A stretch of 64,000 nucleotides of DNA. Origin: a virus. Both the position numbers and the translations under genes were made by a program. Location of the stretch: positions 18,296 to 82,295 of the IMG/VR virus record IMGVR_UViG_3300033144_005375, one strand, 5' to 3'. The notes beneath the pieces are model-generated. The model was not told where the DNA came from. It did not search any database and was given only the letters and a program-made list of their open reading frames with translations. This document shows, one piece after another, positions 47,504-62,406 of the stretch (its first letter is position 1; every line of letters begins with the position of its first letter).

Positions 47504-48846
47504 GCATCCTCCCTGAGCCGCATCGAAAGCAGGTCCCGCGATGCGAGGAGCCCCTCGTCCACGAGGTCACGAACGAACTGCGGATACCATTCGGGGTGGT
47601 GGATCTTGATGGAGACGCGAAGCACCTTGTTCTCGGCGTCCTTCTCGGTGGGTTCAGGGAACTCCACCTCCATGCCGTTTTCCGGAGGCACTTTGACCCC
47701 AGCTTTTTTGGCCTTGACCCGAACCGCTGCGAGCAACTCTGAAATCCTCTCCAACATGGCGTCACGGATATCCCCGTTGTTCTCTTTGCCCTCGAACGCC
47801 GACAGCGTCTTGCGCATCTGAGTCTGGAGGTGCTCGGCCATGTACTGCTGCATCACCGTCGCGTTGTCCTTCTGCTCCCAGAACGTGACACCCGAGACCT
47901 CCAGCTTCTCGAAGGCTTCCTCGACGGTGATCTTCTCGTGCAGCCACTCCTGGAACACCTCGTCGAAATTGTCGTGCCCATCGTTCCCCGACTGGAGCGC
48001 CGCGTGCTGGGCATCGTGACGCGTCTTGTACGGGCCCTCGGACCCTTCGTCGGGGTATTCGGCATCGTGGAAGTACCAGCCAGCCGGGAACGGGCTCTCG
48101 ATCTGGATCACGTTCGGGCCGTCAAGAACCGTCGGCTGCCACATGTCGGGGCGAAGGCTCGTCGTCTTCAACCACCAATTGTCGTCCCTGTCGTAGAACG
48201 TCGGTGCGCGTCGGTCTGTAAACCCCGCATCGTCATCAAGCATCGTCACGACGTGGTGTTGTCCCCGAAGCTCAATGCTCTTGAGGACGTGGTCCACGAA
48301 CTCCTGGGGGAGACGCACGTTGTGCTTCTCGAGATAGTGAGCGAGACCTTCGGGCCACACGTACACGCCGTCCGTGAGCTCGCCACGCCCCATGTCCAGC
48401 GTTTCCTGGCGGCTCGAAAGGTTGGCGTCGGTGCTGTTCTTGGAAGCCGTTCGCCGAGCTGCCCGACGCTGCTCCCAGGTCAGAGACTCATCGGCCGTCC
48501 CGGCCCCGGCAAAGAAGTTCTTCCGGACCCCGAGAACGGTTGGGTCCGGGTCACAACCGAGACGGCACCAGCCGTACAGACCGTTGCCCTCAGCGATGCG
48601 CACGAGGGCACCGCCCCGGAGATAGCTGATCACCCTGCGACGCTCCTCGGGGTCCCAGGAGGCGTCCACGAGGTCCATGGGGTCAGGCCACTTCTGCTCC
48701 CAGTAGTGTTTCCAGAAACCGATCATGCGCAGCTTGACGGGCTTGTCGCGGCCGTCGTCCAGGACGCGACGGGCTTGCATGTAGGTCTCGCCCGTCTCAG
48801 CCATGCGGGCACGGACGCGCTTCTTGAATTGCTTGTTTTGGGTCAT
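47500..48846 (-). CDS. Multidomain protein with an N-terminal basic helical tag
   Basis: Starts MTQNKQFKKRVRARMAETGETYMQARR; internal TDGVYVWPEGLAHYLEKH. Confidence 0.75.
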   Translation of the reverse strand: MTQNKQFKKRVRARMAETGETYMQARRVLDDGRDKPVKLRMIGFWKHYWEQKWPDPMDLVDASWDPEERRRVISYLRGGALVRIAEGNGLYGWCRLGCDPDPTVLGVRKNFFAGAGTADESLTWEQRRAARRTASKNSTDANLSSRQETLDMGRGELTDGVYVWPEGLAHYLEKHNVRLPQEFVDHVLKSIELRGQHHVVTMLDDDAGFTDRRAPTFYDRDDNWWLKTTSLRPDMWQPTVLDGPNVIQIESPFPAGWYFHDAEYPDEGSEGPYKTRHDAQHAALQSGNDGHDNFDEVFQEWLHEKITVEEAFEKLEVSGVTFWEQKDNATVMQQYMAEHLQTQMRKTLSAFEGKENNGDIRDAMLERISELLAAVRVKAKKAGVKVPPENGMEVEFPEPTEKDAENKVLRVSIKIHHPEWYPQFVRDLVDEGLLASRDLLSMRLREDA

Positions 48847-49006
48847 CTTCGATCTTTCGTCTCCGATGAAAGGTGTCGATCCCGCGCTCGACCCCATCAT
48901 CTGACGAGGTTCGAAGATCCCTGCTCGAGGTTTGGTGGCCCCTCTGTCTCCGTTGCATCCTGTCCGCGGGGACAGGCTATGGAGATCAGGCGTGAACGGA
49001 TCGCCC
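48847..49006 (-). ncRNA. Candidate structured leader RNA 1
   Basis: Begins about 6 nt after GGGTAAGGT; at least six hand-identified stems, including one pairing with the start-codon region. Confidence 0.5.
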
Positions 49007-49038
49007 ACACCCACCTTACCCAGCTTTTTGGTTGGCGT

Positions 49039-49575
49039 CTACTCCATCCGCGAGATGAACCAAGCATCCGTGGTGGGGGACACGCGCCACAAGCCCCAGT
49101 GGCTCTTACCGTCCTCATCAGGGCGCCAGGCGACAACGTAGTCGTCACCCTCTCGCCGTACGACATGCCACTGGTGCTTGCAGATCGACACGGTGTCGGA
49201 CTCGACACCATCTTGCACGAACTCCTTCTCGACGACGGTGTCCCCCTTCTCGATGAGGGAGTACCAAGGACGCGAGAACGCCAACGGTGGCGTGTGCTCG
49301 AGCGGCTCTTTCCCATCGATCAGGAGACGAGCAAGAAGGCCGTCTCGTAGTGAGTGCCCAGCTTCAACCTGGAAATCACGACCGTCCTTGAGGGGAGCGT
49401 AACCACCTTGAACACGCAGCTCCATCCAGCGGCCGATGATCTCAACGGTCTTCCGTGCTTCCTCGAGGTCCATGTGGGGGTTCCTAGTTAGGGAGGACAT
49501 TAGGCGGAGTATTGAGTTCTCAGTTGCGTCCCTTGGAGACTTTCTTATGAGGTCCTCGGGGACTGTGTTCGCCAC
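49039..49575 (-). CDS. Hypothetical protein
   Basis: 178-aa ORF with an AGAG/GCAAG upstream region; continues the operon. Confidence 0.6.
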   Translation of the reverse strand: MANTVPEDLIRKSPRDATENSILRLMSSLTRNPHMDLEEARKTVEIIGRWMELRVQGGYAPLKDGRDFQVEAGHSLRDGLLARLLIDGKEPLEHTPPLAFSRPWYSLIEKGDTVVEKEFVQDGVESDTVSICKHQWHVVRREGDDYVVAWRPDEDGKSHWGLWRVSPTTDAWFISRME

Positions 49576-54346: not shown

Positions 54347-54601
54347 TCACCGACACTCGTCGCACCGGACCTTTTTGGGTGCCGGGACCACATCCTCCAG
54401 GGCTCGAATCGTCGTCCCCTGTTCTCGATCCCCACCCCGGCGCACCCCGGCCTTGTACACGTACGTCACGGGACGGATATCATCGTGACCGCACTCCAGT
54501 ACAAGGCACCACCAACGACCAAGTTTGTCGTCATCCTCGAGGATGGCTTCGGTGACTTGTCGAAACGGGTCTTTCCGATGCCTTCCACCCTTATACCCCA
54601 C
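54347..54601 (-). CDS. Small zinc-binding protein
   Basis: LECGH...PKKVRCDEC; start uncertain. Confidence 0.55.
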   Translation of the reverse strand: MGYKGGRHRKDPFRQVTEAILEDDDKLGRWWCLVLECGHDDIRPVTYVYKAGVRRGGDREQGTTIRALEDVVPAPKKVRCDECR

Positions 54602-56428: not shown

Positions 56429-56911
56429 CTACCGTGGCCCACGCGCGCACCTGGTGGACCCGCGCAAAGTACGTTTCACTTTAGAGAGCGATCCGTATCC
56501 ATTCGTGCGAAGCCACGCGTCCACGGCCGTCCAAGTGGTCTTGTACCCCAGGTACGCCGTCGCATCTCCAGACCCGACAGACGGTTGGTTCTCTGTCGCT
56601 CTGTGGAACCGGAAAATCCCCTTCTTGATGATTTCAAGATCATGGGTAGCCCGGAGAGGTTCGATCCCCATCTCCCGACAGAGCTGGGGGAGAGAACTTT
56701 GTCTATTACGGAGCCACGCGTTCACGGTCGACCAAGTGGCCTTGTAACCCACGTACTCCGTCGCATCTCCAGAGTTCACAACCGGGCGTTTCCCCGTCAC
56801 CTGGCGATGCCGACGAATCCCCTCCTTGATGTCCTCAAGATTGTGAGTCTTGTAGATCCCGAGGAGAGTCCCCAGTTCGGCACAGTTGCGGGCCTGTTGT
56901 GCGCCTCTCAC
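56429..56911 (-). CDS. Helical-repeat protein (2 repeats)
   Basis: Two THxLExIKxGI...P...SGDATxYxGYKxTWxxVxAWLR units. Confidence 0.75.
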   Translation of the reverse strand: MRGAQQARNCAELGTLLGIYKTHNLEDIKEGIRRHRQVTGKRPVVNSGDATEYVGYKATWSTVNAWLRNRQSSLPQLCREMGIEPLRATHDLEIIKKGIFRFHRATENQPSVGSGDATAYLGYKTTWTAVDAWLRTNGYGSLSKVKRTLRGSTRCARGPR

Positions 56912-58629
56912 CGTGCCACCCCCGAAATCTTGTTGCGTCCTTTCTTGGGGAGTCCAAGCTCGTCACAGAATTTTGAGACCGAGGACCCGTGATGGTTGCG
57001 GAGCCACCCGTCCCAGGCTTGGAGATCCAACTGTACGGGGCGGTGACCGTGCTTCTTGAAAAAATCCATCATCACGATACGCGCCTGCTCCAAAGTCCTG
57101 CTGTACTGCCACTCCTTCGGCAGACCGAGTGCATCGCAGAACTTGCGCAATGATGACCCACGATACTCAAGCCATCCCTGCCAAGCTGGCAGGTCCTTTT
57201 TCCGCGGTCGTTTTCCGTTCTCCTTGTAGAACCCGAAGACGACTTTGCGCGCTTCCTCCTCGGTTCGGTCCATTCGCAAGAGAGGGGCGTATCCCATTTC
57301 GTCACACACCGCAGGCAAATTCGTGCCGCGAGTCCGGAGCCACCCGTCAACCTTCTGCATGTCTTTGACCCCGGGCCGACGACCATACTTCTCGGCAAAT
57401 TTACGAATCTCGGTTCGGACTGAGCCCATCGTCCTGCCTCGTACCTCGGGACGTTTCGCTGAGAACCCCATCTCTTCACCGAGTCGGGGTAACGAGATGT
57501 CCTGCGACCGAAGCCACCGCGCGAGCTTGGGGAGATCCCGATGTCTCGGCCGATGCCCGTGGGTCTCGTTAAATTCCCCGACTTCGTGTCGAGCAATCTC
57601 CATGGTGTAGCCGTCTACGGGAAGTCCCATTTCATCGCACAGCTCCCGAAGACTGCTGTCATGTCGCTTGAGCCAGTCGGCTCCTTTTCGTACCTCCTTA
57701 TTCATCGGGCGCCGCTTCTCACGGTCGTAGAACTTTTGGACCTCTTGGGTCACCTGCTTTTTGGAAAGCCTCACACTGGCCTTCCCGGGGTGCGCAACCC
57801 GGGAAGACAGTCCCATATCATTACAGACGCCGTGGAGCGTAATGCCTTTGTGGTGTGCTCGGAGCCAACTACACCAGGCCCCCATCTCTTTGTTCGTTGG
57901 ACGGCTCCCGTGCTCGTTGAAAAATGCCTGAAGATCCTCACGGAGGCGAAGCATGGAACGACGCTTTCTGCGACCTTCAGGAAGCCCCATTTTGTCACAG
58001 AGCTTCGATAGGGTCGTACCCCTTCTCCTCAAGAAGTTGACCCACTCAATCATCTCCTTGTTCGTTGGACGGCGCCCTTCCCGGTCGTAGAGCCGCTGGA
58101 TTTCCTCACGGACCCGTTTGATCGTGCGTGGGGTCTTTCCTGTGGGGAGCCCCATTTCGTCGCACAAATCGTGGAGCGACATCTTGTGGTGGTGGGCAAG
58201 CCACTGGTTTTCGCCCGTCATCTCCCGATTCTTGGGCCGTCTACCCTCCCGGTCGTAGAACTTCCTGATCTTCCGTTCGATGCCCCCCTTCGTGCGCCCG
58301 AAATTCCGACCTCCGGGAAGTCCAAATTTCTCGCAGACCTTGTGAATCGAACTGCCGCGCCGCATCAACCACGCGTCCACGTTACGGAACCCATCTTGAT
58401 CTCTCGGGCGACGCCCGTGCCTCTTGAAGAAAGCGAGAATTTTGGTCTCCACACTTCCCATCGTTCTTTTCACGCTCTCCTTGCGATTGCGAGGCTCCGC
58501 GAGTCCCAACAAGACCGCCACACCATGGCAAGTCCGAGCTTGCGGACTTTCCAGCTTTGCCAGATCGAAACCGTCGATCTCCCCCTCGGCTCCTTCGTCA
58601 CTCATGTGGTCGGTCTTGTCGAAAGTCAC
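56908..58629 (-). CDS. Helical-repeat array protein (9 repeats of about 55 aa)
   Basis: RT..V...I..F...HGRRP...D.....WL...G.SL...CDEMGLP repeated nine times; GTGA overlap with the helicase stop. Confidence 0.8.
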   Translation of the reverse strand: MTFDKTDHMSDEGAEGEIDGFDLAKLESPQARTCHGVAVLLGLAEPRNRKESVKRTMGSVETKILAFFKRHGRRPRDQDGFRNVDAWLMRRGSSIHKVCEKFGLPGGRNFGRTKGGIERKIRKFYDREGRRPKNREMTGENQWLAHHHKMSLHDLCDEMGLPTGKTPRTIKRVREEIQRLYDREGRRPTNKEMIEWVNFLRRRGTTLSKLCDKMGLPEGRRKRRSMLRLREDLQAFFNEHGSRPTNKEMGAWCSWLRAHHKGITLHGVCNDMGLSSRVAHPGKASVRLSKKQVTQEVQKFYDREKRRPMNKEVRKGADWLKRHDSSLRELCDEMGLPVDGYTMEIARHEVGEFNETHGHRPRHRDLPKLARWLRSQDISLPRLGEEMGFSAKRPEVRGRTMGSVRTEIRKFAEKYGRRPGVKDMQKVDGWLRTRGTNLPAVCDEMGYAPLLRMDRTEEEARKVVFGFYKENGKRPRKKDLPAWQGWLEYRGSSLRKFCDALGLPKEWQYSRTLEQARIVMMDFFKKHGHRPVQLDLQAWDGWLRNHHGSSVSKFCDELGLPKKGRNKISGVAR

Positions 58630-60650
58630 GGCGTGGCCTCCATGTTCTTCTGACGCCACGCCATGACAGTTTCCTTGGAGACCGGATGGGCTTGAAGGTA
58701 CGCGTTGACCACACGCCAACTGGTTTCGTACCCCACGTAGGGCGTGGCATCACCGGACGAACTCGTGGGAGGTTTGCCGTGTTCCTCGATGTACTTCACG
58801 GTGCCGGCCATGATGTTGTCGGTGCGGTGTAAAATCCCGACAGTCCTACGCATACTCCGCTCGATCTCTTTGGCGTCACGCCCCGTCAACCGGGAAACCA
58901 TGCGCCAGTTCTTCTTCGACATCGGAGGATCGAATTTGATCTTCCCCCTGTGCTCGCGCACGACGTACTCATCGAACAAGGCGTTGAAAGCCCCCGGAAT
59001 GAGGTCCACAGGGCTCCCCACCGAAGACTTTCGAGACTTGTCCGCAGGGTCCGGCTTCTTTGGCTTGAACATCCTGCGATACGCCAGAGCAAGGGCCTCC
59101 AGCATCGCCTCCCGAGTGTCCTCATCCTTGACGACCGCCGTCACCCGAAGACGCAACAACATTTTCCCTCGGTCATCGAGCCCGAATTTCTCCGCAACAC
59201 GATCCATTTCCGCGAGGCTCAGACTGTCTTCTTCGGGCCGAAGGAACTTGAACGCCACATCAACAGCTTGCATCTCCTCATCCGTGGGCTGGAGCTTGGA
59301 CTCGATCTCGTCGAGGTCCACAGACACAGGTGCCGCAGGAGTGTTGAATTTCACCACGTCCCGGATCACCGACACGAGCATCTGCCCGGCCTCATGGTCC
59401 TCGAGATGCCCAGCCATGAGCAACGCCATCCGAAGGTGGGCGGACTCGAAGGCAGGACGCGCCATCTTGACCTTCATCTCTTTCGTGAACTCCGGCACGA
59501 AGAACGTGATCCGAGCGATCTCAGGATGAAGATGCCCCGTGATGCCCTCCTTGGTTCGGAAAGCGCGACCCCAACGCTGGTTGGTGCGTCGAATCGATTT
59601 CGGGAATCCAACGTGATAGACGTGGCTGCACAGAGGCCAGTCGGTGCCCTCGTTGAACCGCGCGCAAGCAACGATCACATCCGCCTCTGAGTCGTCGATG
59701 TGGGTCACCTCGCGCTCCGTGGCCAGGAGAGCAACCAAACTGTCCTGGAACGCTTTACCGGTGCCCACCGCGTTGTGGACCCTGGCCTTGTCGCCGCCGC
59801 GGTACGGAACGCGCTCCTTCTGGAACGCCTCCACAACACGATGACTCCACGACTTGGATTTTCCGGGAGGAACGATCACAATTACCTTCGGGTAACCATC
59901 CCTGCGCCACTCGCGAACCATTTTCTTGATCGCCCCGGTGCTGATGCGCCTGGGGAGCTTCCGCCCGTAAAGCTCATCGTTGGTACGCACCCGATAACCG
60001 GAAAGCCCCACCGCGTGGATCTCAAAGTACTTCGGGGCGTAGCGTTTCCCATCCACATCCGGCAACGAATGCTGGGCGATGGAGCGGCGCACCTGGACGA
60101 AACTTTCGTCGTACACCCGTAGACCATCCGTTCGGTAAGGCGACGCGGATACTATGGCCAAACACCCTCCACGGTCTGTCCACTCCTTGCGCTTCTTGCT
60201 GATAAGAGGCGCATCGTCTGTGGTTTCCACGGTACTCCCGTGAGCCTCGTCCACGAACAACACCCACCCCGTCAAATCCTTGGGTAGCGAAATGCCGGTG
60301 AAAGACTGACGACAGACCACCGCAGCGAACGGCCGATCCTGCCAGTGTTTCCGGAGCCATTTCCCGACAACCCGTTTGGTGCTTGGCGCCCCGTTGTAAA
60401 TGGTGGGCTCGAACAGACTTTCCGGAGCAGCCCCGTTCTTCATGAAACTGTCTCGGATCGTCACCATCGGAACCGTCACCACGGCGCCGTTCCAGTCCCC
60501 TCGACTCAACTCGGCAATAACGGAGGAGACCACGGTGGACTTCCCGGCCCCGGTCGGGGCGTTGTAAAGCACATCCCGACCATCGTGAAGGGCCCCGAGA
60601 AGGGCTTTGCGGTGCTTGACTTGGTATGGGCGGAGTTTGAACTTCGTCAT
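58626..60650 (-). CDS. Superfamily 2 helicase/ATPase with a C-terminal helical repeat
   Basis: LRPYQ, APTGAGKS, VDEAH, SASPYRTD, FNEGTDWP and QRWGRAFR. Confidence 0.88.
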   Translation of the reverse strand: MTKFKLRPYQVKHRKALLGALHDGRDVLYNAPTGAGKSTVVSSVIAELSRGDWNGAVVTVPMVTIRDSFMKNGAAPESLFEPTIYNGAPSTKRVVGKWLRKHWQDRPFAAVVCRQSFTGISLPKDLTGWVLFVDEAHGSTVETTDDAPLISKKRKEWTDRGGCLAIVSASPYRTDGLRVYDESFVQVRRSIAQHSLPDVDGKRYAPKYFEIHAVGLSGYRVRTNDELYGRKLPRRISTGAIKKMVREWRRDGYPKVIVIVPPGKSKSWSHRVVEAFQKERVPYRGGDKARVHNAVGTGKAFQDSLVALLATEREVTHIDDSEADVIVACARFNEGTDWPLCSHVYHVGFPKSIRRTNQRWGRAFRTKEGITGHLHPEIARITFFVPEFTKEMKVKMARPAFESAHLRMALLMAGHLEDHEAGQMLVSVIRDVVKFNTPAAPVSVDLDEIESKLQPTDEEMQAVDVAFKFLRPEEDSLSLAEMDRVAEKFGLDDRGKMLLRLRVTAVVKDEDTREAMLEALALAYRRMFKPKKPDPADKSRKSSVGSPVDLIPGAFNALFDEYVVREHRGKIKFDPPMSKKNWRMVSRLTGRDAKEIERSMRRTVGILHRTDNIMAGTVKYIEEHGKPPTSSSGDATPYVGYETSWRVVNAYLQAHPVSKETVMAWRQKNMEATP

Positions 60651-60653
60651 GAC

Positions 60654-61517
60654 CTACTCCCCGTCCTTTCCAGTTCCTGTTGCCAAGGGACGTGTTCCGT
60701 GCTCCTTGTAGTATTTCCGGATGCCCTTCTCGATGTCCTTGAGGTTGTGGGTTCCCACCCCCCGTTCAGGAAACAATTCGTTGAGATACAGAGGGATCTC
60801 CCGATCCTCACTGCGCAGCACCAATGAGGTCTTCAAAAGAAACTTCATCTGCTCGAGGGTTTCCGCGAAGGTCACTTTGGAGGAGTTACTCTCCCACTGA
60901 CGCAGTAAACGACCGAGCGTTTGAGTCACCCCGCGCCGATAGGCACGTTCCGCGGGACTCTGGGGAGCGAGCCCAGAGGTAGCCGTCTCTTTGGCAACTT
61001 TCCACCTGTTTCCGTTGAACACGTCGCCGAGAGCAACACGTCGCATAGGGGCCATGCTCTTGACCGCCTCCTGCAACGGCTGCCATGCCGCTTCCAAATC
61101 CTCCTTTGAATAGCAAATCGCCATCAACCGAGACGCCAAAATGTGAGGGAGCTCCTCTCCCCGGCAAAGGGCCTCATGGAGACTCACCGCATCAGGGTCT
61201 CCAGAGACTCCCTCACCGTCCTCGTCCAGAAAACTGCGACCAAAATAGTCAATGGGATCGTGAAGCATCGGATCACCAGACCACTCCGCACGCATCAGGA
61301 TGACGCAATAAGGAGCACCCTCCGGCACCGTGCCAGTCGGGAACTTCGAACTGTGCACCGCCTTCGCAATGTTCCAGTTCTTGTAGCCGTGACTTGATGC
61401 TACAGCATGGAGACAGTTGACGTGACCGAGCTCGATGCCCTGTTCCGCGAGATGCTGACGCAGCAGCTTGGCCTGAGTTTTGAGAGATGGGATGGTAGAC
61501 GAATTTGTGCTGTCCAT
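60654..61517 (-). CDS. Protein with an N-terminal Glyoxalase_8-like helical domain and a C-terminal half repeat
   Basis: LKTQAKLLRQHLAEQGIELGHVNCLHAVASSHGYKNWN; ends THNLKDIEKGIRKYYKEHGTRP. Confidence 0.75.
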   Translation of the reverse strand: MDSTNSSTIPSLKTQAKLLRQHLAEQGIELGHVNCLHAVASSHGYKNWNIAKAVHSSKFPTGTVPEGAPYCVILMRAEWSGDPMLHDPIDYFGRSFLDEDGEGVSGDPDAVSLHEALCRGEELPHILASRLMAICYSKEDLEAAWQPLQEAVKSMAPMRRVALGDVFNGNRWKVAKETATSGLAPQSPAERAYRRGVTQTLGRLLRQWESNSSKVTFAETLEQMKFLLKTSLVLRSEDREIPLYLNELFPERGVGTHNLKDIEKGIRKYYKEHGTRPLATGTGKDGE

Positions 61518-61683
61518 GATCGTGATCCTTCCTGGTGAGACCCTTAAGAGTTCCGTGCTCGCGTTACGGGGTCTGGGTCTCGAGGAGTGGTCAACGACCA
61601 GGGTTGGAGACGCAGGGTTCGTCAGCGGAGCTTTACCGAGTCTCCCGGGGGAGATGCGAGCGGTAGGCGCTCCTGATGCCTTC
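61518..61683 (-). ncRNA. Candidate structured leader RNA 2 (possible pseudoknot)
   Basis: Stems AGGC/GCCT, TCTCC/GGAGA, TGGTC/GACCA, GAGACCC/GGGTCTC and CCGT/ACGG; the last loop contains GCGAGC, complementary to upstream GCTCGC. Confidence 0.5.
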
Positions 61684-61760
61684 ACCCCTTCTACCCCATC
61701 TTTTTTCACGAACAGCTCAACGAACGATCAACTGCCCCATCCGGGCTGTCCGAGCCCAGT

Positions 61761-61796
61761 CCCTCTTGATCCCGGGGTGACCCTCTTGATCCCCGG
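61761..61796. repeat. Tandem 13-bp direct repeat CCCTCTTGATCCC, 20-bp period
   Basis: Copies at 61761 and 61781, in the divergent intergenic region. Confidence 0.7.
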
Positions 61797-61878
61797 ATCA
61801 GCGGCTTTTTTCGTGAAAATCCCAGTTTTGCTGTCAGGTGCTGTCAGCTCTCGGTGTCTACGGAGTGGACCTAATGAA

Positions 61879-62406
61879 ATGGGAATCACGAACGACCTAC
61901 ACACGCGCTGCCACCTCAACCGCCTACGCCGGCACCACGATGCCATGATGGCCCTGAGAGACGACTCGAGGGCCCAGGAGGAGTTCGAGCTCCACGCCTG
62001 GGCCTTCGCCCGGATACTCATCACGTCGGACTACATGAAGCACCTGCTCGATGACATGGTCCAGTGCCATCACCGGCAGACCACCATCTGGGAGATCGAC
62101 GCCGAGTTGGACCGAGACCAGTACCCCAACGCGATCCCTCCCATCTGGGCTCTCGAACTCGTCGAGCTCATCCTCCGTGCCTGCTCCGTCATGAGCAGCG
62201 TCGACTCCAACCACAACACCGAGTTCTACGGAGTCTGGGACGCCTTGAACATGATCGAAGAGTGGAGGCCCTTCGGCAACTACACCAACGCGATCCTCAC
62301 CACCATCTCTGAGGAGGACTACACGAAATGGAGTCGCGGGGGGCTCAACCCCAACTCGTGGCTTGGGTTCCCCATGTTCCTGAAAAAGATCCCCGACGCC
62401 AATTAG
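61879..62406 (+). CDS. Hypothetical protein
   Basis: Protein-like from MGITNDLH; GGAG upstream; GC3-rich codons. Confidence 0.65.
   Translation: MGITNDLHTRCHLNRLRRHHDAMMALRDDSRAQEEFELHAWAFARILITSDYMKHLLDDMVQCHHRQTTIWEIDAELDRDQYPNAIPPIWALELVELILRACSVMSSVDSNHNTEFYGVWDALNMIEEWRPFGNYTNAILTTISEEDYTKWSRGGLNPNSWLGFPMFLKKIPDAN

Follow-up and report, generated by a model that had tools for sequence, protein, structure and literature searches.

We analyzed a 64,000-nucleotide (nt) stretch of viral DNA, hereafter called the window, and describe here a leader of approximately 170 nt that precedes, on the minus strand, the gene for a protein of 287 amino acids (aa) with an N-terminal domain (N-domain) of the Glyoxalase_8 type. 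The window comprises bases 18296-82295 of IMG/VR record G000 (82,295 bases; CheckV completeness estimate, 16%), which stems from a large uncultivated marine-sediment phage, and most of its genes, as well as the leader, are on the minus strand. Read along that strand, the locus consists of the box TTCGTGAAAA, the motif GGGGTAGAAG, ~170 nt without a convincing open reading frame (ORF), the Shine-Dalgarno (SD)-like sequence AGGAAGGA, and the ATG of the 287-aa gene (Table 1). An earlier note on this DNA, drawn up from the sequence alone, had placed such a leader ahead of a Glyoxalase_8-like domain. All of the motifs that it listed were found on the minus strand where it had put them, and a ~170-nt leader before a gene with that N-domain is borne out, with the ATG at 61517-61515 and not at 61518.

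TABLE 1 Features of the leader locus in window coordinates (helices and pairings are predicted)
Feature	Position	Strand	Remarks
Divergent intergenic region	61518-61878		Plus-strand gene begins at 61879
Second copy of TTCGTGAAAA, plus-strand reading	61810..61819	+	Faces the divergent gene starting at 61879
Box TTCGTGAAAA	61703..61712	-	5 nt upstream of GGGGTAGAAG; arm of inverted repeat I1
GGGGTAGAAG, instance of the recurrent motif GGNGTANAAG	61688..61697	-	Conservation between phages begins here
Conserved non-coding leader, whole	61518..61697	-	Alignments A2, A3, and A5; covariance model R1
P1 core, ~50-nt three-tier hairpin	61624..61675	-	H3, H4, and H6; best-supported element
H3	61673-61669 with 61631-61627	-	P1
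H4	61665-61661 with 61638-61634	-	P1
H6, apical	61654-61650 with 61645-61641	-	P1; loop CCCG
P2, long irregular hairpin	61514..61602	-	H7, H8, and H9
H7	CCUGGUCGU (61602-61594) with ACGAUCAUGG (61523-61514)	-	P2; AUG included
H8	61590-61575 with 61543-61527	-	P2; contains GAGACCC/GGGUCUC
H9	61567-61562 with 61555-61550	-	P2
Loop-loop pairing, 5' strand GCUCGC	61656..61661	-	Internal loop of P1
Loop-loop pairing, 3' strand GCGAGC	61557..61562	-	Apical loop of P2
SD-like sequence AGGAAGGA	61526..61533	-	8 nt 5' of the ATG; paired inside H8
Start codon ATG	61515..61517	-	Paired inside H7
Downstream gene (287 aa)	60654..61517	-	
N-domain, residues 1-55	61353..61517	-	Three predicted helices; only part common to leader-bearing relatives
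SF2 helicase gene	58626-60650		Tightly 3' of the 287-aa gene
Gene for protein with HNH-associated repeats	56908-58719		In a tight row behind the 287-aa gene and the helicase gene

Conservation of the leader among related loci

The comparative evidence rests on three full variants of the leader, namely those of the window, of loci L003/L004, and of loci L005/L006/L009, together with one partial variant, L013. A protein search yielded five proteins at E <= 0.001 among 1861 candidates; two of them are full-length relatives (80% and 68% identity), and two match over the first ~52 residues only. When JGI metagenome contigs were scanned with the alignment, 124 stretches matched the pattern and six loci were confirmed. 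L003 and L004 have the same sequence across the region, with equal model scores, and L005 and L006 are likewise the same (identical rows in alignment A2); L007 and L008 are AT-rich, 34% identical, and without the leader. A DNA-pattern scan located the L005 variant (as L009) also in IMG/VR record G001 (230,069 bases, estimated 90% complete). The fourth variant, L013, is ended by a contig edge after 71 nt; it scores 54 bits with the model, keeps H4 and H6, and has a UUCG loop. Covariance model R1 scores the three full variants at 223, 219, and 173 bits. Searches with R1 found exactly one copy of the leader each in G000 and G001, always directly before the N-domain gene, and no match above 12.7 bits in the window beyond the leader itself.

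Further searches added few relatives. Within IMG/VR, the 287-aa protein, the P0005 protein, and the protein behind a second leader of the window (copy 1, described below) returned none, the N-domain alignment returned the 230-kb record as the sole relative, and three leader DNA patterns returned only L009 and L013, plus L039, which we discarded as a chance match inside a coding sequence. Three pattern matches in GTDB, in Micrococcus, Gemmataceae, and Solirubrobacteraceae metagenome-assembled genomes, were also rejected as chance (model scores of <= 8.2 bits each), and blastn in distant mode gave no leader match among GenBank phages. Exact pieces of the leader occur in sediment, marine-sediment, and hydrothermal-vent metagenome runs; four sequencing runs contained short unitigs identical to the window and one 50-nt piece of 88% identity in a different context, and these supplied no usable variants.

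The alignment of the three full leaders spans GG(N)GTA(N)AAG through the ATG and has a mean column identity of 86%. Nothing is alignable 5' of the start motif, and on the 3' side the proteins share residues 1-52 and are unrelated thereafter. Between the window and L004, leader identity is 0.89 versus 0.55 at third codon positions of the N-domain (one-sided Fisher p 6e-7); between the window and L005, the corresponding values are 0.73 and 0.54 (p 0.014). Within the leader, the apical region of P2 is markedly more conserved than the linker, in which the insertions and deletions sit. A protein-coding role, either as an N-terminal extension or as a small ORF in either direction, is ruled out by insertions and deletions of 2, 3, and 5 nt between the variants and by the lack of a synonymous bias: in an ungapped 85-nt block, all six frames have 5-13 non-synonymous versus 0-4 synonymous codon differences. 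The P0005 frame is open in the window and in L004 (the gene caller ran through the L003/L004 leader) and is closed in L005/L009. Judged by these alignments, the leader is a conserved, non-coding stretch of ~170 nt.

Predicted fold of the leader

For the three full variants, RNAalifold predicts a two-domain consensus of 55 pairs, including 6 that are changed on both sides. To gauge significance, alignment columns were permuted in a manner that preserved the conservation pattern. On the sense strand, the consensus z-scores were -2.40 for the whole leader (2/300 shuffles as good), -2.71 when starting from the putative transcription start (4/300), -2.49 for the 5' domain (3/300), -2.54 for the 3' domain (2/300), -2.5 to -2.7 for the P2 fold, and -4.17 and -3.90 for the P1 core at 61675-61624 (0/300 each). 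The number of compensatory pairs mildly exceeded its expectation in two sets of shuffles (3.16, with 22/300 reaching 6; and 3.3, with 15/500 reaching 6), and sliding the 3' partners by 1-3 columns left 39-56% of cells paired, versus 88.7% in the model. The consensus-level tests are positive but modest.

In P1, all variable pairs of H3, H4, and H6 remain paired, three of them through double changes (33:73, 48:63, and 50:61) and the rest via G-U. The consensus pairs GGAGC with GCUCC, in which L005 replaces a C-G by a U-A pair, and the apical loop differs between the variants (CCCG, UUUG, and UCC); in L013, H6 reads GUCUCC-UUCG-GGGGAC. Of 84 P1 cells, 81 are paired on the sense strand versus 66 when the model is mirrored to the antisense strand, a comparison that is biased toward the strand of the model.

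In P2, the helix between GAGACCC (61581-61575) and GGGTCTC (61543-61537), enclosing CCGT-aacgcgagc-ACGG, is present as the earlier note had described it and is kept in all three full variants. The strand 5' of GAGACCC co-varies with the flank of the SD sequence (UCCU/AGGA, UUUCU/AGAAG, and UUUCC/GGAAA in alignment A3). The same note had also drawn a 5' hairpin, AGGC-atcaggagc-GCCT; its letters are there, directly after GGGGTAGAAGG, which ends at 61687 (minus strand), and they never vary and lie outside the consensus model.

The two domains may in addition be joined by a pseudoknot between GCUCGC in the internal loop of P1 and GCGAGC in the apical loop of P2, a pairing that the earlier note had proposed. 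All six pairs are standard in all three variants, and L005 has one compensatory change (GUUCGC/GCGAAC), so that both the complementarity and its conservation hold. A covarying 6-bp helix nevertheless arose in 81/200 column shuffles, and taken alone the pseudoknot falls short of significance. Because four of the six pairs bridge an internal loop of P1 and the P2 apical loop, the contact is compatible with the nested fold. We regard the evidence from sequence for this pseudoknot as suggestive.

Predicted occlusion of the translation start

To quantify occlusion, we used the mean pairing probability of positions -14 to +3, with 200 shuffles of the upstream part as the control. This probability was 0.855 in the window (0.578 after shuffling; 0/200 shuffles reached the observed value), 0.764 in L004 (0.565; 8/200), and 0.814 in L005 (0.462; 1/200). 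In all three variants, therefore, the SD sequence and the start codon are predicted to be paired by the upstream leader beyond chance. The autoregulatory or switch-like role in translation that the earlier note had suggested would fit this modeled pairing.

Weighing a proposed cis-acting folded leader

The conservation, the signal of the consensus fold, and the predicted occlusion lead us to read the stretch as a cis-acting folded 5' leader that would hold the translation start closed, an interpretation to which we give slightly better than even credence. Several observations weigh against it. On its own, the window leader has a minimum free energy of -70.0 kcal/mol, which 21/200 dinucleotide shuffles equal (z -1.34), and the leaders of L004 (z -0.61) and L005 (z -0.54) do not stand out from shuffles either; stems that fold no better than shuffled controls were what the earlier note itself had named as speaking against its proposal. 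At the consensus level, the antisense strand scores nearly as well for the whole leader (z -2.16, 4/300), for the P1 core (z -2.97, 2/300), and for P2 (z -2.61 to -2.74; 3' domain, -2.74, 4/300), with -1.27 (35/300) for the 5' domain. The strand is hence argued mainly from the orientation of the gene and from the G-U pairs, and the sense strand is also the one from which the structure model was built. The covariation is thin, coming from three full variants only, and H7 and the core of H8, being invariant, are uninformative either way. Moreover, between L004 and L005 the leader shows no excess of conservation over third positions (0.73 versus 0.69; one-sided Fisher p 0.34), and the leader groups the window with L004, whereas third positions group L004 with L005. 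These differing groupings imply that the locus is mosaic, and part of the similarity between the leaders of the window and L004 may stem from recombination rather than constraint. Finally, no RNA-type runs are listed among the recorded sequencing runs that contain the stretch.

Recurrent DNA motifs at the 5' edge

The motif at the 5' edge of the leader recurs. In the window, GGNGTANAAG has three matches versus 0.62 expected, all on the gene strand (minus; 61688-61697, 56540-56549, and 54590-54599), a number reached in 1/100 shuffles; in G001 it has 26 matches versus 7 for the reversed control. Of these 26, 15 have the start codon of an ORF of >= 50 aa within 20 nt, usually at a spacing of 4-7 nt, and the motif is often followed by purine-rich, SD-like bases. 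We infer that GGGGTAGAAG is a -10-like promoter or gene-start element, and GGNGTANAAG might serve as a -10-like element in transcripts that are leaderless or have short leaders. At the leader gene, the distance from motif to ATG is ~165 nt in the window and 161 nt in G001, versus the usual 4-7 nt. Scans of 61300-62100 returned neither a consensus sigma-70 promoter nor an intrinsic terminator.

Two copies of the box TTCGTGAAAA (61703-61712 and 61810-61819) form a perfect 10-nt inverted repeat, I1, with each copy facing one of the divergent genes. The core TTC(AC|GT)GAA occurs 16 times in G000 versus 1.3 in mononucleotide shuffles and 38 times in G001 versus 2.7, a 12-14 fold enrichment, and it lies within 30 nt upstream of GGNGTANAAG at 1/3 sites in G000 (0.02 expected) and 4/26 in G001 (0.13 expected). 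The box is often extended to TTCGTGAAAAGATGG, and five GGNGTANAAG motifs have it, in one orientation or the other, at a distance of 5-12 nt on their upstream side. By its appearance it is a promoter- or operator-like site, or one for a phage regulator.

A third place in the window (54347-54601, minus strand) begins with GGGGTATAAGGGTGGAAGGCATCGG, and by eye its first 25 nt agree with the leader start at ~22 positions. An ORF of 84 aa follows, which encodes two Cys pairs and whose only in-frame start overlaps the motif. Between both boxes of the divergent region lie two tandem 20-nt direct repeats, CCCTCTTGATCCCGGGGTGA and CCCTCTTGATCCCCGGATCA (61761-61800, plus-strand coordinates), which are not kept in the upstream regions of the relatives.

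Given these motifs, the stretch might act as DNA, that is, as an extended promoter or operator of the N-domain gene whose palindromes bind phage regulators; this we consider possible but unlikely. The region does open with two recurrent DNA motifs, its structure signal is close to strand-symmetric, as inverted repeats in DNA would give, and the single-sequence folds are not significant. Operators usually need far less than ~170 nt, however, and here conservation continues for that length past the promoter-like motif, up to the ATG. The apical hairpin of P1 changes its stem bases as well as the length and sequence of its loop and yet stays paired, which is typical of an RNA helix and not of a half-site, and the one-sided changes in P1 all give G-U pairs on the sense strand (with the bias of the mirrored comparison given above). 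In addition, the SD sequence and the AUG find their specific complements in upstream strands of the leader.

The downstream protein and a variable locus

The 287-aa protein matches Pfam family PF20066 (Glyoxalase_8) with 44.1 bits against a curated cut-off of 23.7 (E 2.8e-11); the match is limited to profile positions 3-56 of 143 (protein residues 4-57), and coverage of the whole profile is not reached. AlphaFold2 models the N-domain as three helices (mean predicted local distance difference test score, 73.2), and Foldseek found no match to this model in the PDB at E <= 0.001 (best E, 1.0). The idea that the N-domain is SAP/HeH-like was dropped, as the Foldseek comparison did not bear it out. 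A literature search on the family found nothing. G000 and G001 each have one copy of the N-domain. At E <= 0.001 it is found in 129 cluster representatives of 52-990 aa, nearly always at the very N-terminus, and ~20 representatives with >55% N-domain identity (114-486 aa) carry many different C-terminal parts. The relatives P0014, P0019, P0020, and P0021 end in a common C-terminal motif, ...GMVFN..DTSNA, which may resemble ubiquitin-like "multiubiquitin" domains.

The surroundings of the gene vary. The earlier note had the leader heading an operon of helicase and repeat genes, which is true in the window; in L004 and G001, no helicase lies behind the leader gene. The leader gene stands within ~0.4-2.5 kb of a contig end in G000, G001, and the L003 and L013 contigs, and further inside the contig in L004 and L006; breaks in assembly at a locus that varies across the population could account for the terminal position, as could an end of the genome. 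In G001, a ~25-nt junction, (A/G)GCACCGAGGCGCCTGACGG, recurs at the ends of successive genes (L009 3340-3420, 4360-4440, and 4620-4650; L005 4550-4800), and it also flanks, on both sides, a Cys-rich small ORF of 62 aa inserted directly 5' of the leader. This junction resembles a scar left by cassette insertion. At the spot where G001 carries the 62-aa ORF, L004 has another insertion, of ~215 nt. According to ARAGORN, the window contains neither tRNA nor tmRNA.

Such variability raises an alternative in which leader and N-domain have no dedicated function and serve as a constant 5' homology arm through which recombination swaps 3' cassettes. It would account for the unrelated C-terminal parts in every variant, for the breadth of proteins headed by the N-domain, and for the incongruent groupings of leader and third positions, and the location near the contig end in four contigs fits a variable spot at the population level. 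We nevertheless judge it improbable: the window and L005, as well as L004 and L005, are 27% diverged in the leader and yet keep the P1 pairing through compensatory and wobble changes, the apical region of P2 is more conserved than the indel-bearing linker, and pairing of the translation start exceeds chance in all three variants. Recombination and function are, moreover, not mutually exclusive. A further reading is that large marine-sediment phages share a polymorphic gene family in which leader and three-helix N-domain are the constant 5' cassette and unrelated C-terminal effectors are swapped in behind them; the N-domain would bind the P1-P2 loop-loop contact or the apical loop of P2, which is invariant, and so exert a common autogenous control. 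This reading is distinctly unlikely in our estimate; if true, it would add a new RNA-protein pair and a new organization of a hypervariable phage locus.

Other RNA readings and the second leader

We also considered an independent small RNA, sense or antisense, acting in trans. The antisense consensus fold is about equal to the sense fold, and the apical loop of P2 is highly conserved with few predicted pairs, as target-binding loops can be. The stretch, however, always abuts the same gene start, its 3' strand is the SD/AUG region itself, 61300-62100 contains no terminator-like site, and Rfam gives no match, all of which makes a trans-acting RNA very improbable. More specifically, no Rfam 15 family reached its gathering score anywhere in the window, and for 61450-61900 at E <= 10 Rfam produced two chance-level matches, to Guanidine-I (plus strand, 16.6 versus 63 bits, E 1.3) and to a fungal small nucleolar RNA (11.8 versus 48 bits). 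No family of the ribozyme kind was matched either at gathering score or at E <= 10, and the ribozyme named among the options of the earlier note finds no backing here.

That note had further paired the leader with copy 1 (48847-49038, minus strand), both being taken as diverged members of one RNA-protein module. The hairpin string that it quoted for copy 1 occurs once, at 48988-49005 (minus strand). With filters off, R1 reached at best 4.1 bits (E 0.15) on the copy-1 leader in a 701-base search of 48600-49300; with default filters it returned nothing at copy 1 at E <= 10. When the N-terminal 60 residues of both downstream proteins were compared by BLASTP, no alignment was returned at E <= 100, and the copy-1 N-terminus matched no Pfam family at E <= 10, while that of the leader gene matched Glyoxalase_8 at 3.4e-12. 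In G001, which has the leader, the copy-1 protein has no relative. The claimed likeness to copy 1 is thus confirmed neither by covariance model nor by BLASTP or Pfam, and at the level of sequence and model it is contradicted. The partial resemblance of the two leaders over ~25 nt at the 5' end is found also at 54599 and is better accounted for by the context of the start motif than by a common RNA. Copy 1 by itself folds beyond shuffles (z -3.37, 0/200), with the perfect hairpin CCUGUCC-CCGC-GGACAGG. Even though both are long leaders on the same strand that start near a GGGTA-type motif, and copy 1 has this fold of its own, the R1 score, the unrelated N-termini, the lack of a copy-1 relative in G001, and the lack of an Rfam ribozyme match leave the proposal of one two-member module, be it switch, ribozyme, or ribonucleoprotein, with almost no credence.

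Discussion

If the cis-acting leader is real, 61518-61697 (minus strand) would be a long 5' untranslated region on the mRNA that encodes the 287-aa protein, with transcription putatively starting a few bases 3' of GGGGTAGAAG. The RNA would fold into two domains, P1 at the 5' side with a conserved, covarying structure and P2 at the 3' side with a conserved sequence; strands of P2 would pair with the SD region and the AUG, and the six-base pairing may connect an internal loop of P1 with the P2 apical loop. Ribosome loading would then be blocked until P2 is opened or remodeled, for which a protein, a small ligand, temperature, or a helicase are candidates. We infer the direction of this regulation, as we do the transcription start and the identity of the trigger.

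Among known systems, the mRNA leader of T4 gene 32 is a pseudoknot-containing translational operator under autogenous control, in which the protein binds an unstructured stretch beside the pseudoknot. Both it and the present leader are pseudoknot-type folded phage 5' leaders that control, or would control, their own gene, and a link between leader and protein is plausible in both; the two differ in that no Rfam or sequence similarity connects them and that here the SD sequence and the AUG themselves would lie inside a long hairpin. SD-sequestering riboswitches similarly place a folded upstream domain with conserved loops before a helix that occludes SD and AUG, with a possible tertiary contact, but no known aptamer family matches the leader and the downstream gene suggests no ligand. 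RNA thermometers such as ROSE and fourU mask SD and AUG in imperfect hairpins with G-U pairs and internal loops; they usually lack a separate covarying hairpin and strongly conserved loop sequences. The present leader is much longer, has both of these features, and matches no Rfam thermometer. As for the protein, its first ~55 residues match the N-terminal part of PF20066 above the cut-off, as in Glyoxalase_8 proteins, and in place of the remainder of the profile, which is absent, it carries an unrelated C-terminal part that differs from one phage variant to the next.

The leader is therefore probably new to Rfam 15 while using an ordinary, known kind of mechanism; the newness is claimed against Rfam 15 and not against the printed literature, where a narrow search on phage cis-regulatory RNA motifs found nothing. 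It opens no new class of mechanism. If real, the leader would be an uncatalogued cis-regulatory RNA of large uncultivated phages, placing one gene under special translational control where most genes have only 4-7 nt between the start motif and the ATG. It also offers a way into the gene-start and promoter-like motifs of phages from a group without a cultured member.

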